From Escherichia coli (GTDB lineage: Bacteria > Pseudomonadota > Gammaproteobacteria > Enterobacterales > Enterobacteriaceae), in NCBI RefSeq assembly GCF_003334385.1, contig NZ_QOWN01000001.1: 64,000 nucleotides of DNA; one strand, 5' to 3'. Below are positions 56,197 to 64,000 of this stretch, piece by piece. The notes under the pieces were generated by a model. The model saw only the letters and a program-made list of their open reading frames with translations, did no database searches and had not been told where the DNA came from. Numbering within the stretch: the first letter of the stretch is position 1; each line of letters opens with the position of its first letter. Position numbers and translations under genes: made by a program.

Positions 56197-56775
56197 AAAG
56201 GCTTTTTTTAAGCTGATTTTGGAAATCAGCTCAGTCAGTGAAAGGACCATTGTTGATCGCACAGCCTGTTGATAGCGCTGAATTTGCATTGCATACAAAC
56301 TGGAGTCTGCTGGTTCAAACTGTGGCGGCGGTGGTAACGCCGCCACGCAGTGCAGTTCACCAAAGGGTCCAAGGATTTCGTCGTCGGTAAAGGCGTACTC
56401 GTTGCCGTCGTGATTTAGCTCTTCACGCAATGCCATCAGCAGTTCCGCATCTTCGTATTCCTGGCGGTTAATGACGCCCAACCCGTAAATGAGTTTTAAA
56501 CGCACAGAAAGATCGCCCAGCGGACCATCGCCGTCGAGTAACGGTTCTACAGCATACTTCACCGCGTAATCGTCTTTGCGGAATACCTGAAGCACCAGAA
56601 GATTTACCGCCTCGGTCAGGAGCTCGACGGCGGTGATCAGAAAGCTTCGCACGGTTTTGCCAGCATTCAGACGCTCAAGCACACGGTTTTCAAAGGCCTG
56701 GGTTTGTTCCATTGTTGCCTGCATATCTGACAATCTGTTATTCGGGCGCAGGGTGTCCTGCGCCTGGTCCACCAT
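56188..56775 (-). CDS. mtlR: mannitol operon repressor
   Basis: 195-aa [43 protein letters not shown]...; start overlaps the mtlD stop (TAATG). Confidence 0.94.
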   Translation of the reverse strand: MVDQAQDTLRPNNRLSDMQATMEQTQAFENRVLERLNAGKTVRSFLITAVELLTEAVNLLVLQVFRKDDYAVKYAVEPLLDGDGPLGDLSVRLKLIYGLGVINRQEYEDAELLMALREELNHDGNEYAFTDDEILGPFGELHCVAALPPPPQFEPADSSLYAMQIQRYQQAVRSTMVLSLTELISKISLKKAFQK

Positions 56776-57923
56776 TATTGCATTGCTTTATAAGCGGTTA
56801 CCGCCTCGGATACAACCTCGCTGTTGGCATCAAGACCGGAAATCTGTGCCAGCGCCGCCTGCGGACCTTTGTCAGCGATCAGTGCTGCCAGTTCCTGAGC
56901 CTGCGGATCATCTTCACTGCGGAAGTGCATTGCAGCGGCAATACCTTCAATCAGGTTTTTATGTGGCAGACCATATTCCAGCGTACCGAGCAGTGGCTTG
57001 ATCAGACGGTCGCCAGCACTCAGTTTACGCAGTGGCTGACGGCCTACGCGCTCTACATCATCTTTCAGATACGGGTTCTCAAAACGGCCGAGAATTTTCT
57101 GGATGTACGCCGCATGCTTGTCAGCGTCAAAGCCGTAGCGCTTGATCAATACTGCACCACTTTCTTCCATCGCACCTTTTACCACCGCGCGGATTTTCTC
57201 GTCGAGAATCGCGTCACGAATGGTCTGATGACCGGCCAGTTTTCCGAGGTACGCGGTTATAGCATGACCCGTGTTCAGGGTGAAGAGTTTACGTTCGACA
57301 AATGCCATCAGGTTGTCGGTTAACTCCATGCCTGGGATGTTCGGCAGTGCGCCTTTGAACTGCGTTTTATCGACAATCCATTCGCTGAAGGTTTCTACCG
57401 TCACTTCCAGCGGATCGTTAGTTGCCGAAGCCGAAGGCGGTACGATGCGGTCAACGGCGGAATCGACAAAGCCAACGTGTTCTTCTACCCACGCTTTGGC
57501 GTCTTCCGGCAGGGCGTTCATCACATGGCCTTTCAGCTGCGTGGTACCGCGTACCATGTTTTCACAGGCGATGATGTTCAGCGGGGATTCATTACCTTGT
57601 TCTTTACGTTTCACCAGCCCTTTGGCGATTGCCGGAGCAATACGTTCCAGCACAACCGGGCCAACGGCGGTAGTGACTAAATCAACCTGAGCAATCAGAT
57701 CAACGACATCATCACCAATGCTGCTGACAGCATTGACGCCGGAAACGGTATCTACCTGCTCGGTTTCACCAACCACATGTACCTGATAGCTATGACGGGC
57801 ATTCAGGGCATCAAGTACCACCTGATTGACATCGGCAAACGTCAGTTGGATACCCGCGTCTGCCAGCAGTTTACCGATAAAGCCACGACCGATATTACCT
57901 GCGCCAAAATGTAATGCTTTCAT
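56775..57923 (-). CDS. mtlD: mannitol-1-phosphate 5-dehydrogenase
   Basis: 488-aa ORF; Met at 57923 gives 382 aa [20 protein letters not shown] (Rossmann). The upstream 106 codons run through REP repeats. Confidence 0.95.
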
Positions 57924-57952
57924 AGTATTAACCTTCATCAATGTTTTTACCC

Positions 57953-58146
57953 GAGAGGGCTGGGGTGAGGCTTTTCCCTCACCCAAACCCTCTCCGTGAG
58001 GAGAGGGGCAGCGCCGGATGCGGCGTAAGCGCCTTATCCGGCCTACAAGAACGTGCAAATTCAACAAATTGTGATGCATCCTGTAGGCCTGATAAGCGTA
58101 GCGCATCAGGCAATTAACCCCACCTTCTCCATGTGGAGAGGGTGGG
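57953..58146. repeat. composite BIME-like mosaic: G/C-rich palindromic units flanking two inverted REPs
   Basis: GGGGTGAGG..CCTCACCC-AAA-CCCTCTCC-GTGA-GGAGAGGGG (57962-58008); REP GCCGGATGCGGCGTAAGCGCCTTATCCGGCCTAC (58013-58046); inverted REP GTAGGCCTGATAAGCGTAGCGCATCAGGC (58083-58111); CCCCACCTTCTCC-ATGT-GGAGAGGGTGGG (58118-58146). Confidence 0.8.
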
Positions 58147-58152
58147 ATTGGA

Positions 58153-60066
58153 TTACTTACGACCTGCCAGCAGTTCCAGCACTTCATCCACGCTGGTGGT
58201 GTGTGCCAGACGCTCGATGACGGACTCATCATCCAGTGCATTGGTCAGGCTGGTGATAACCTGAATGTGCTCGTTGTTACGGGCAGCAATACCAATCACC
58301 AGACGGGCAATGTCATCTTCTTCTTCACCGAAGCGCACGCCTTCCGGGTACTGGCAGAACACGACGCCCGTTTTCAGTACGCGATCTTTCGCTTCAACCG
58401 TACCGTGTGGCACCGCGATAGACTCACCCAGATAAGTCGGGGTCAGTTTTTCACGATCCAGCATCGCCTGAACGTATTCCGGCTCAACGTAACCGCCTTT
58501 CACCAGCTGCTCGCCAGCAAAACGAATCGCTTCTTCTTTGGTTGCCGCTTTGCGACCGAGGAAGATGTTCTCCGCGCCTAGCTTGAACAGGTTAGCACTG
58601 GAATCGTCAAAGCTGTCTTTCAGGCTGTCTTTTACTTTCTCTTCGTTTGCCGTGTGGCGTTGGGCAGCAACCAGACGTTCGGTCAGGCTGGTGTACAGGC
58701 CGCTGTCGAGGAAGTTGGTCAGCGAAATATGCTGTGCCTGCGGAACCTGGCGCATAGCGCGTTCGGTCAGGTCACGGTGAGTGATGACGAGGTCCACATC
58801 TGGCGGCAGGTTGTTGATCGCGCTGTTAGTAACAGAAATCTGCGACAGACCTGCATCCTGAATTTTCTTACGCAGAACGCCTGCGCCCATCGCACTGGAA
58901 CCCATACCGGCGTCACAGGCAACGATGATTTTACGTACGTGGCTCAGGTCGTTAGTCACATCGCCAGCAGACAGCGGAGATGCGCCTTTAGACTCAGCTT
59001 TCATGTCCTGCATACGACGAGTTGCTGCTTCAATATCATCTTCTTCTTTCACTTTGCTGGTTTTCAGCAAAATAGCAGAGACAACGAAGGAGACAGCCAT
59101 CGCCGCACACACACCCGCGATGTTAGCGAAGTAAGCACCTTTTGGTGTCATCGCCAGTACAGCAAGGATAGAACCCGGAGACGCCGGAGAAACCAGACCA
59201 CCGCCCAGGATAGTCAGCGTGAACACGCCAGTCATACCGCCGAGGATGACTGCGAGGATCAGACGCGGATTCATCAGCACATACGGGAAGTAGATTTCGT
59301 GGATACCCCCCAGGAAGTGGATGATTGCCGCACCGCCCGCAGACTGTTTAGCGCTACCACGACCAAAGAACATGTACGCCAGCAGCACGCCCATACCTGG
59401 ACCTGGGTTAGCTTCAATCAGGAAGAAGATTGATTTACCCAGTTCATGGGACTGCTGAATACCCAGCGGCGAGAAGATACCGTGGTTAATGGCGTTGTTG
59501 AGGAACAGGATTTTCGCCGGTTCAACAAAGATAGACGCCAGCGGCAGCATGTCATGGACAACCATGAAGTTAACGCCCGCAGCCAGCATTTTGGACAGGG
59601 CTTCAACAATCGGGCCAATGCCGAGGAATGCCAGAATAGCGAGGATCATCCCGATGATGCCTGCGGAGAAGTTATTCACCAGCATCTCAAAACCGGATTT
59701 GATCTTACCGTCTACCCAGCGGTCGAAGTGCTTAATGCACCAGCCGCCCAGCGGACCTGCAATCATAGAACCGAGGAACATCGGCATGTCTGCGCCGACG
59801 ATAACGCCCATGGTGGTGATGGCACCGACTACGCCGCCACGTTCGCCGCCTACCAGCTTACCACCGGTATAACCGATCAGCAGCGGCAGGAGATAAGTGA
59901 TCATCGGCCCGACCAGCTTCGCCAGCGTCTCGTTCGGTAACCACCCTGTTGGAATAAATAACGCGGTGATGATACCCCACGCGATAAACGCGCCGATATT
60001 TGGCATCACCATGTTGCTGAGGAAACGACCAAAGCTTTGCACTTTGATCTTAATATCGGATGACAT
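58153..60066 (-). CDS. mtlA: PTS mannitol-specific EIICBA component
   Basis: 637-aa [40 protein letters not shown]... Confidence 0.97.
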
Positions 60067-62104: not shown

Positions 62105-62142
62105 GGGGGAGGGGGGAGATTATGGAACTTTGCTCCTTGTAA

Positions 62143-62400
62143 GGACTAATTATTTTTGCATATTACTTCATTAGCTGCGATGATTTTTCTTTAATATTCA
62201 TTATGTTAATAAGTTCTGGATGAGTGTGCTCTCATTGGATTTTTTATCCGTCTTGTTCTGCCGCAGGATGAGACTATACATCGTCGAGATCGCAATGATG
62301 ATATGAGTTGTTCCTCCTGCGACGGCTCTAATCAAAAAAGAGCAGGAGTGCTTTTCCATCTATTGCGATGATGGCTTTATTATCTGAAGGATGACAGTCA
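62143..62400 (-). pseudogene. degenerate fragment of an ISAs1-family (H-repeat-associated) transposase gene
   Basis: Minus-strand translations in shifting frames: ...PSDNKAIIAIDGKALLLFFD*, ...LRQNKTDKKSNESTLIQNLLT**, ...NIMNIKEKIIAANEVICKNN*. They resemble the conserved AIDGK.LR and KTDEKSNEI..IP.LL..LDIKG...T.DA..CQ blocks of H-rpt transposases (from memory); many stops and shifts. Confidence 0.45.
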
Positions 62401-62563
62401 CATTTAAAAAATATTTAATCTATAGATCACAATGTAGGGTCATGGAATATATGTATACAACTATTTTCTTCTTCACTTTTAATTATCGTATTCATTATAA
62501 AACTAAGTTAAAAAAACTCCTGGAGAGTGAGTTATTAATATATTTTTAAATAAAATTAAGTTA

Positions 62564-63084
62564 TCATTCATCGATGCACTTTATAGAATCATCAATGGCC
62601 ATAATAGTACTATTAACTCTCAATTTTATATTTTTATCATCACTACAAATATTAACTGAATTTATATCAATGATTTTTTTATTCTTATCTTTTATTTTAT
62701 TTACTGTTTCAATGCAATCAGCGGCAAGTTGGAGTGGATTTAGATTTTTCAGATATGGTCTTATGATCTTTCCCTTACTTAATAAATAGCATGTATAGGA
62801 TTCGGAAAGTCCAGCATCTATTTTGTACCTCATTATATTAGATAAGGATGTGAGAAATTCCTTGTTATCATTCGCAGCCATATATGCCAGTCCGAGTTCA
62901 GCCTCTGCGGCCTTACAGGCAAAATAGCTTAGTGAACACGCTTTTCGTCCCTCTTTAGTACTGGCTGATATTAGTGCCCATAATATTGCTTTGTCTGCCA
63001 AATCTAACTCTCTCTGAAATTGTCTTGCAGTAACTGCACTCGCAGAAATAGAGAAAAAAATACAATTGTTAATAACCTTGCCAT
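62564..63084 (-). pseudogene. immunity-like gene following the orphan Rhs toxin tip; signal peptide separated from the body by a frameshift
   Basis: ATG 63084 lies 5 nt after the toxin stop and encodes MARLLTIVFFSLFLRVQLLQDNFRES*. One extra T in the T7 run (63054-63060) would fuse MARLLTIVFFFSISASA|VTARQFQRELD to the 145-aa ORF (TTG 63001) LADKAILWALISASTKEGRK... Confidence 0.5.
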
Positions 63085-63089
63085 ATTTT

Positions 63090-63668
63090 TTAGTCCGTAA
63101 CTGTTAATGTGCTATCTGGCTCTGAAAATATTAACTCATTTAATTTTTGCATGTCATTAGATAAACCAGTTATACAACCCTCGGAACAGAATCGAGGTCC
63201 TAAAGACGGACCAAAAGCGTTTAAACAACTATGTATTGAAAATCCATTGCGATTATAAGTTCCTGTATTAACTGACGGTACTAATCGTATGCCGTCAGGT
63301 TTTCTATTGCTTGCTCCCGGGTCATTAACATTCCAACTCCATAGGCCTTGAGGTATTGGCCATCTATTTATAAATGTGTACAACGGGGATTATTTTTACA
63401 TTGCATATTATTACCAGAAGCGACTGGAATACTAAGCACATCATAAAAATTATCATCACATGGTATATCTGAAACACACGAAAGCATACCTAAAGTTATG
63501 CTGTATAAACAGGTGGCTAATCCCAAGGGGATCGATTCCAGAAATCGGGTTCAACGGATACTGATAAAAATTCCACCTACCTTCCAGCCCAATCGGAGCC
63601 TGAGTGTTATACCGCCCCTGCTGCGGTTAATGTTACCGATAATAGTTATAGTACAGCCCTGATTCATC
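63090..63668 (-). pseudogene. orphan Rhs C-terminal toxin cassette (Rhs core-tail remnant + YkuD/Tlde1-like domain), disrupted
   Basis: Minus strand: [46 protein letters not shown](L), the end of an Rhs core with the DPxGL boundary. The tip is readable only across two C4-run frameshifts (63527-30, 63385-88), ending in the 97-aa ORF ...WPIPQGLW...NGFSIHSCLNAFGPSLGPRFCSEGCITG... Confidence 0.55.
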
Positions 63669-63707
63669 ATCATACTACTGCTGCGGCAGTCTGATGAACT
63701 ATTGCTT

Positions 63708-64000
63708 TTACGGATTCTCCTTATTCTTCCTTCTATCCATTCGCTTTAGCTTTTTGAGCTCTTGAAGTTTGCTCTTTGCATCAATATTACCGTTATTTAC
63801 AGCGAATTCCATCCAATAAATAGCTCTATTCAAATTATAATATTCTGATAATGTTGGATTTGTATCTGATAAAAAGACCCCATAATTAAACTGCGCTGTA
63901 ACATTCCCCTGAGATGCTGATCTTTCCAAGAATCGCAATTGTTTGTAAATGTTATTTTTAGTAAAGCAGTAATATTGATATAGTCGAAATGATGCCTCTG
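63708..64000 (-). CDS. yibG: Sel1/TPR-like repeat protein, C-terminal part (gene continues beyond right edge)
   Basis: The frame is open to the window edge (...EASFRLYQYYCFTKNNIYKQLRFLERSASQGNVTAQFNYGVFLSD...AIYWMEFAVNNGNIDAKSKLQELKK...). Sel1-like A..G...A and A..W...A...G spacing; the yibG name is tentative, from position in the rhsA tail. Confidence 0.45.
   Translation of the reverse strand, partial: EASFRLYQYYCFTKNNIYKQLRFLERSASQGNVTAQFNYGVFLSDTNPTLSEYYNLNRAIYWMEFAVNNGNIDAKSKLQELKKLKRMDRRKNKENP

Follow-up and report, generated by a model that had tools for sequence, protein, structure and literature searches.

Gene layout of the locus

The window is a stretch of 64,000 nucleotides of Escherichia coli DNA. 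Its gene layout runs from the mannitol operon on the minus strand through yibI and yibH on the plus strand to an A+T-rich block on the minus strand. In that block, the minus strand at 63090-63703 carries a short Rhs-core remnant ending in DPLG, followed by a toxin domain split across three frames. A frameshifted Imm57 immunity gene starts 5 nt past the toxin stop. The features are as follows.

63708 to 64000, minus strand: 3' end of yibG, encoding a Sel1-repeat protein (open reading frame list and RefSeq annotation of the syntenic W3110 locus)
63527 to 63703, minus strand: remnant of the 3' end of an Rhs core, called the handle, about 58 codons (RHS_core, TIGR03696 and alignment to intact cores)
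63699-63701, 63675-63677, 63633-63635 and 63627-63629, minus strand: four in-frame stop codons of the handle (alignment to intact copies)
63527 to 63531, minus strand: lesion 1, a +1 insertion at the boundary between DPLG and L, in or next to the first C4 run (alignments)
63090 to 63526, minus strand: toxin-domain pseudogene, Tlde1-like with a predicted YkuD fold, in two reading frames, stop codon at 63090-63092
63408 to 63417, minus strand: lesion 2, a 9-bp in-frame deletion within the TGGTAATAA tandem duplication (alignments, family alignment)
63385 to 63388, minus strand: second C4 run, without a lesion (the homologous frame runs straight through, CKNNP-R-C)
63368 to 63371, minus strand: lesion 3, a CAA-to-TAA nonsense change plus a 1-nt deletion, the true second frameshift (alignments)
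63360 to 63362, minus strand: Trp codon (TGG) at a position where Gly is invariant, NRGPIP to NRWPIP (family alignment, n = 20)
63231 to 63233, minus strand: putative catalytic His codon (motif)
63174 to 63176, minus strand: Cys codon of the SEGC motif (motif)
62564 to 63084, minus strand: Imm57 immunity pseudogene, ATG at 63082-63084 (Pfam Imm57)

The yibG stop codon lies at 63708-63710, 5 nt upstream of the remnant, and the earlier note was right that no core lies upstream. The presumed role of yibG is immunity to the orphan rhs fragment before it. The orphan block at 62105-64000 (spacer, Imm57, toxin and yibG) had a G+C content of 33-37%, and the handle, at 46%, lay between this and the values for the window (49%) and for mtlA and yibH (53-54%). 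Such a difference, 34-37% against 49% for the window, is typical of Rhs tips.

In the RefSeq annotation of K-12 W3110, the gene order is rhsA, yibA, an rhs fragment, yibG, the remnant (a pseudogene labeled RHS repeat-associated core, with an internal stop), an unannotated gap, a frameshifted Imm57 gene, and yibH. The feature under study corresponds to the second rhs fragment of W3110 and the unannotated gap. W3110 and the window were 99.9% identical over 1,601 bases, and the W3110 locus contains a full-length rhsA. In the window, rhsA would lie beyond position 64000, so the linkage to rhsA rests on synteny in other genomes. In K-12, the stretch from the remnant to Imm57 carries the annotation that we take to be yibS/yibW/yibV. 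Literature searches under the names yibV, yibU, yibW and yibS returned almost only unrelated acronyms.

Of the 5,426 complete E. coli genomes, 3,710 were matched by the 1,601-base query (62400-64000), and in 3,342 the identity reached at least 99%. The decayed cassette is present in about 60% of complete E. coli genomes, and the locus is therefore ordinary. In other strains, insertion sequences occurred repeatedly within the orphan block, with IS3 and IS1 interrupting several window-type genomes.

The Rhs-core remnant

The handle matched the last 49 positions of the NCBIfam RHS_core model (positions 1212-1260 of 1261) at 65.8 bits. It also passed the TIGR03696 cut-off, scoring 47.4 bits against 32.5. 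The earlier note had recognized the end of an Rhs core at this place, and the profile matches bear this out. It had, however, assigned the remnant about 45 codons from 63668 with two stops. When the handle was set against the 3' ends of the intact cores in L004 and L006, an alignment that the note had suggested with full-length rhs genes, homology was found from about 63703, giving about 58 codons and four stops. The handle reads KQ-stop-FIRLPQQ-stop-YDDESGLYYNYYR-stop-H-stop-PQQGRY..., and the intact copies have no stops at these places. Nucleotide identity to the intact handle was 76.6%. As expected of an orphan module, a 3' core fragment ends in the DPxGL motif and the full core upstream is absent.

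Lesions in the toxin frame

The two C4 runs of the minus strand, which are G4 on the plus strand, lie at 63527-63530 and 63385-63388, just where the earlier note had placed them, and its translations were reproduced exactly. The note had proposed two opposite-sign frameshifts, one in each run. The toxin frameshifts do sum to zero, and lesion 1 does lie at the first run, where the window has GATCCCCTTGGG and the intact alleles have GA-CCCGTTGGG (GATCCCC versus GA-CCCG). The second shift is not in the second run but at lesion 3, 17 nt past it, where intact TTACAAAATAG stands against TTA-TAAATAG in the window. In every distant homologue, as in the intact alleles of E. coli, the middle frame continues as CKNNPxCTxxxNRGPIPxGxW.

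Lesion 2 (about 63416/63417) had been missed. It converts ASGNNGNNMQC to ASGNNMQC, so that GNN is lost from the conserved SGNNGxx motif and a nearly invariant Gly is gone; its exact breakpoint is ambiguous inside the repeat. The repaired protein of the earlier note, with its wrong second junction (...NNPPLYTFINRW...), scored 18.7 bits on the Pfam Tlde1_dom model, compared with 28.8 bits for the homologue-guided repair (...NNPRCTHLQNRW...). The correct reading frame through the toxin wreck is now given.

Two substitutions were also found. Trp in place of the invariant Gly of NRGPIP likely damages the toxin. The window has Ile where the family has Thr or Ser, directly before the conserved His of HSC, and this is likely a second damaging substitution. 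In total, at least eight changes in the cassette are inactivating or suspect. With both shifts restored, five stop codons would remain and the core would still be missing, so no Rhs-linked product could be made. From its reading frames, the window module is predicted to make no toxin and no exported immunity protein.

Toxin family, fold and catalytic motif

The gathering threshold of Pfam Tlde1_dom (PF10908) is 30.1 bits. The intact E. coli allele from strain E700025, which RefSeq labels as a tlde1 domain-containing protein, scored 34.9 bits and passed, in agreement with the Tlde1/YkuD assignment made in the earlier note. The intact allele P0002 scored 28.0 bits, and the homologue-guided repair of the window lay 1.3 bits under the gathering score. 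In the profile searches that the note had called for, all 20 aligned family members matched Tlde1_dom at E <= 0.01, with a best value of 6.2e-10. None of the 20 matched the YkuD model at E <= 0.01. No NCBIfam model matched the toxin or the Imm57 protein beyond chance hits (E about 0.03-0.2).

When the family profile was searched against PDB sequences, it matched only the Rhs handle, with no sequence-level link to Tlde1a or to L,D-transpeptidases (Ldts). The fold was therefore compared by model. A structure model of P0002 with 19 homologues was obtained (pLDDT 85, pTM 0.81), and its significant Foldseek matches were DpaA, Bd1075, Pgp2 and L,D-transpeptidases. The toxin tip is thus modeled with a YkuD-like L,D-transpeptidase fold.

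The His and the Cys of SxGC are invariant in the family, 19 residues apart, and about seven cysteines are conserved. The His, Ser, Gly and Cys of the motif are invariant or nearly so and are retained in the window. The published motif is HXX14-17-(S/T)HGCh (10.1101/2020.02.18.954545). The family departs from it in the second His, which is replaced by Glu (SEGC) in 17 of the 20 members. The earlier note had described its H-x15-SEGC arrangement as one residue short of the transpeptidase signature. The published spacing includes 15, at its lower edge, and with Glu as the real departure and a YkuD-like spacing this description was mistaken. The spacing of 19 residues resembles that of classical YkuD enzymes, compared with 10 in Tlde1a (H121 to C131). 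Because it is unlike that of Tlde1a, we infer the assignment of the catalytic His. By analogy with known relatives, we infer a Cys/His L,D-peptidase activity on peptidoglycan, a periplasmic target and type VI delivery.

The Imm57 immunity gene

In the window, a T7 run at 63054-63060 on the minus strand breaks the signal peptide of Imm57, and a T8 run restores a 173-aa protein. The T8 protein matched Pfam Imm57 (PF15596) at 160.4 bits (E 1.3e-47, profile positions 2-100 of 100, threshold 25 bits). Its N-terminus, MARLLTIVFFFSISASA followed by VTARQ past the presumptive cleavage point, is a Sec-type signal peptide by inspection. The remaining 145-aa Imm57 ORF of the window begins past the signal peptide, so its product could not reach the periplasm.

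Among complete genomes, 38 had the T8 state, including several O121:H19 STEC, and 3,344 had at least one difference (non-T8). The immunity half is therefore not dead everywhere. Over the interval 62540-63720, strain XH993 and O121 strain RM8352 each have just the extra T and a single SNP relative to the window; in RefSeq their Imm57 genes are annotated as intact. The toxin beside Imm57 was dead in all 38 T8 genomes. Across the same interval, the sole difference between W3110 and the window was an A8 for the A7 run at 62674-62680 on the minus strand. The Imm57 pseudogene of W3110 therefore carries two opposite-sign homopolymer shifts (T7 and A8), compared with only T7 in the window.

The earlier note had proposed a toxin that acts in the periplasm. 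The restored Imm57 signal peptide and the roughly seven conserved cysteines of the toxin fit such a site of action, which these sequence features suggest.

Intact and full-length relatives

In strain Ec73552 (L003, 3370-8074 of NZ_CP151643.1), a 1392-aa PAAR-Rhs protein ends in the tip and is followed by an intact 173-aa Imm57. This module occupies the same chromosomal site, with yibF and yibH as its immediate neighbors and no yibA, yibG or other orphans. The arrangement may be either ancestral or the result of a recombinational collapse that re-armed the orphan. In strain 6409, an orphan with about 355 core codons in frame with an intact tip was found together with an intact Imm57. An ST648 genome also has an intact orphan tip, and there an ISAs1 transposase of the H-repeat type abuts the truncated handle.

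When 1.84 billion representatives were searched exhaustively with an HMM, 65 proteins reached E <= 1e-30. Among them were Rhs proteins from metagenomes, 1308-1616 aa long, that carry the domain at their extreme C-terminus. A word-indexed protein search had suggested a family made up of orphans only, and this was overturned by the exhaustive search and by Ec73552. The matches to RHS_core and TIGR03696 and the full-length carrier in Ec73552 support the displaced orphan Rhs tip of the earlier note. The note had staked its reading on a profile match, a conserved middle frame and an intact copy. All three were found, and the intact versions and the conserved middle frame therefore favor it.

Compared with the intact allele, dN/dS was 0.22 for the toxin (dS 0.295), 0.40 for Imm57 and 0.25 for the handle. 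These values indicate that the divergence occurred mostly under purifying selection and that inactivation came later. The module of strain DSM 103246 (L006, 2704-4136 of NZ_CP019944.1) is a mosaic: its 5' toxin part is of the intact type, with a GAG-to-TAG change 10 codons before the end, and its toxin 3' end and intact Imm57 are of the window type. This mosaic indicates recombination between two allele classes inside the toxin gene.

P0001 and P0031, which looked like partly re-opened window-type ORFs, were considered as revertants and rejected; they were treated as error-prone data or an unsampled lineage. Their Logan contigs, L009 (SRR31976258) and L010 (SRR6334890), of 1,846 and 1,847 nt, have a common first base (window 63874). 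Five departures from the window are found in both, among them a C4 to C2 contraction and a CA deletion by which a 131-aa ORF is re-opened. Homopolymer contractions were many in both contigs, with about 20 in 1.7 kb of L010. The frame-restoring CA deletion was found in none of the 5,426 complete genomes.

Fixation of the lesions and alternative explanations

A fully repaired 602-nt query gave a best match of 99.3% in the 5,426 genomes, which was the window state with all four differences present; among the matches listed, the matched span was 601 nt in all but one of the full-length ones. A 90-nt query with the C3 state gave no full-length 100% match in the 5,426 genomes, and 3,489 genomes matched at 95-99% identity. 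A 91-nt query with the restored A-run (A4) matched no genome at 99% or more, and 3,492 matched at 95-99%. No toxin-frameshift revertant was found among the roughly 3,490 complete genomes that carry the window allele, and the toxin lesions are fixed across K-12, B, C and O157:H7 backgrounds. This fixation excludes an assembly artefact and leaves a slippage switch unsupported.

The earlier note had viewed the cassette as silent but kept, with a sequencing artefact or a reversible off-switch as possible causes of the paired shifts. At least eight changes and the lack of a corrected run among the roughly 3,490 genomes do not support these views. Homopolymer miscalls in a single assembly would explain the two indels, and the contracted runs of L009 and L010 do indicate that technical run-length errors occur in this region. 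However, the same indels are present at 99% identity or more in over 3,200 independently sequenced complete genomes, including MG1655, W3110, C600, BL21 derivatives and O157:H7, and neither the nonsense substitution nor the 9-bp deletion is a homopolymer error. An assembly artefact is effectively refuted. A contingency locus, in which slippage of the two toxin runs restores the frame in a subpopulation, appears very improbable, although lesion 1 does lie at a C4 run, the T-run of Imm57 is truly polymorphic (T8 in 38 genomes against non-T8 in 3,344), and W3110 has an extra A in the A7 run. When run lengths were tabulated across complete genomes, as the note had proposed, no corrected state of the toxin runs appeared, and only the immunity T-run varied. 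The second shift lies outside any C run and is accompanied by a TAA nonsense codon. The four handle stops, the missing upstream core and the lack of a start codon would leave even repaired shifts unproductive. Efficient slippage also needs longer runs than 3-4 bases, as is established for contingency loci.

A residual function of the remains was also weighed. The 97-aa ORF at 63090-63383, presumably the yibV of K-12, might be produced, or the T8 Imm57 might serve as an immunity-only shield against Rhs-Tlde1 attackers. The ORF retains the His...SEGC residues and many records list it as a protein (P0004, with 480 member sequences); an intact Imm57 stands beside a dead toxin in the 38 genomes, for example in O121:H19, and the immunity dN/dS is 0.40. 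Against this, the N-terminal half of the fold (model strands 1-3, the CKNNP region) is missing from the 97-aa piece, which has no export signal and only a TTG start, and the Imm57 product of the window lacks its route to the periplasm. A promoter and terminator scan found nothing above chance, with 6 promoter-like sites compared with 8.6 expected. We consider such a function quite improbable. A bolder version, in which the toxin is dead everywhere, the T8 Imm57 is kept in some lineages such as O121:H19 against RhsA-Tlde1 attackers with T8/T7 slippage as a switchable shield, and the SEGC, cysteine-rich branch borne by Rhs is separately a distinct L,D-peptidase in its biochemistry, is unlikely. 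What the genomes display is the usual decay of a pseudogene: the toxin was lost first, and loss of the immunity gene is still under way.

Interpretation of the module

With a probability of about 0.9, the module is best read as an orphan toxin/immunity pair, the last in the row at the 3' end of the E. coli rhsA locus and the one that has decayed furthest. In its working form, the tip would have been the C-terminus of a PAAR-Rhs protein. From the published literature on Rhs and Tlde1, it would have been cleaved after DPxGL and delivered by a type VI secretion system into the periplasm of a neighbor. There it may have acted as a YkuD/Tlde1-fold Cys/His L,D-peptidase on peptidoglycan stem peptides, with the producer shielded by the secreted Imm57 encoded just downstream. 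Newer tips would then have pushed the module downstream with about 58 core codons retained, and decay would have followed.

Under this reading of an orphan module, what fills the unannotated gap of K-12-type genomes is a wrecked cell-wall toxin of the Tlde1 type. The locus gives a clean example of the order of decay in polymorphic toxin loci, with a toxin for which no corrected state was found and an immunity gene that is intact in about 1% of the genomes with the window allele. Its importance is limited mostly to tidy annotation. The intact allele of Ec73552 offers a ready-made construct for the uncharacterised SEGC branch of the Tlde1 family.

Relation to known systems

Rhs-LD-peptidase-Imm57 modules and orphan displacement have already been published, and the cassette is of a known kind, thoroughly decayed. 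RefSeq labels exist for the handle, the intact tips and the Imm57 genes. Tox-LD-peptidase toxins with conserved H, S and C, RHS repeats, linkage to type VI secretion and Imm57 immunity were described in beta- and gamma-proteobacteria (Zhang et al. 2012, PMC3482391). The very same combination was found in the window; that study is a computational catalogue, and the decayed E. coli copy and its lesions are not described there. Rhs-DUF2778 fusions were reported in 11% of genomes with a Tae7-family member, with a Shigella example named and the Imm57 link cited (10.1101/2020.02.18.954545).

Short-handled orphan rhs tips, in some cases with in-frame stop codons in the handle, were described together with a C-terminal displacement model for orphan rhs-CT/immunity modules (Poole et al. 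2011, PMC3150448). Orphan rhs modules are also the subject of Jackson et al. 2009, as cited in PMC3150448. The window module resembles these in its short core ending in DPxGL, its toxin tip and its cognate immunity gene, which by synteny with W3110 would be stacked 3' of the main rhs and the immunity gene of that rhs, and in having a counterpart tip fused to a full-length Rhs in another strain (Ec73552). Unlike the functional orphans studied experimentally, the window copy is far more degraded, and one recombination event with the main core would not suffice to revive its allele.

In Salmonella Typhimurium, Tlde1a with its immunity protein Tldi1 is a type VI L,D-carboxypeptidase and transpeptidase-exchange effector (PMC9638812; 10.1101/2020.02.18.954545). 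The window family shares with it the Tlde1_dom, the conserved His and SxGC Cys, a cysteine-rich composition (disulfides fit the periplasm) and an immunity protein with a signal peptide. Sequence identity to Tlde1a is 16%. Whereas Tlde1a stands alone, the window family is fused to Rhs; it has SEGC in place of SHGC, with Glu replacing H129 of Tlde1a, and its partner is Imm57 instead of DUF2195/Tldi1. The cell-shape L,D-carboxypeptidases Pgp2 of C. jejuni and Csd6 of H. pylori and the L,D-transpeptidases LdtMt2, LdtMt5 and Ldtfm differ in that they serve the wall of the cell that makes them, as housekeeping enzymes with extra domains; none is a secreted toxin, and none has an Rhs carrier or an immunity partner.

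Other observations in the window

In the mtlA-mtlD intergenic region (about 57940-58150), a spurious long ORF at 56775-58241 crosses repeated palindromic-looking segments (PSPHGEG...), which suggests REP/BIME-type elements. The mtlA-mtlD spacer was 230 nt in W3110 and 95 nt in strain E700025.
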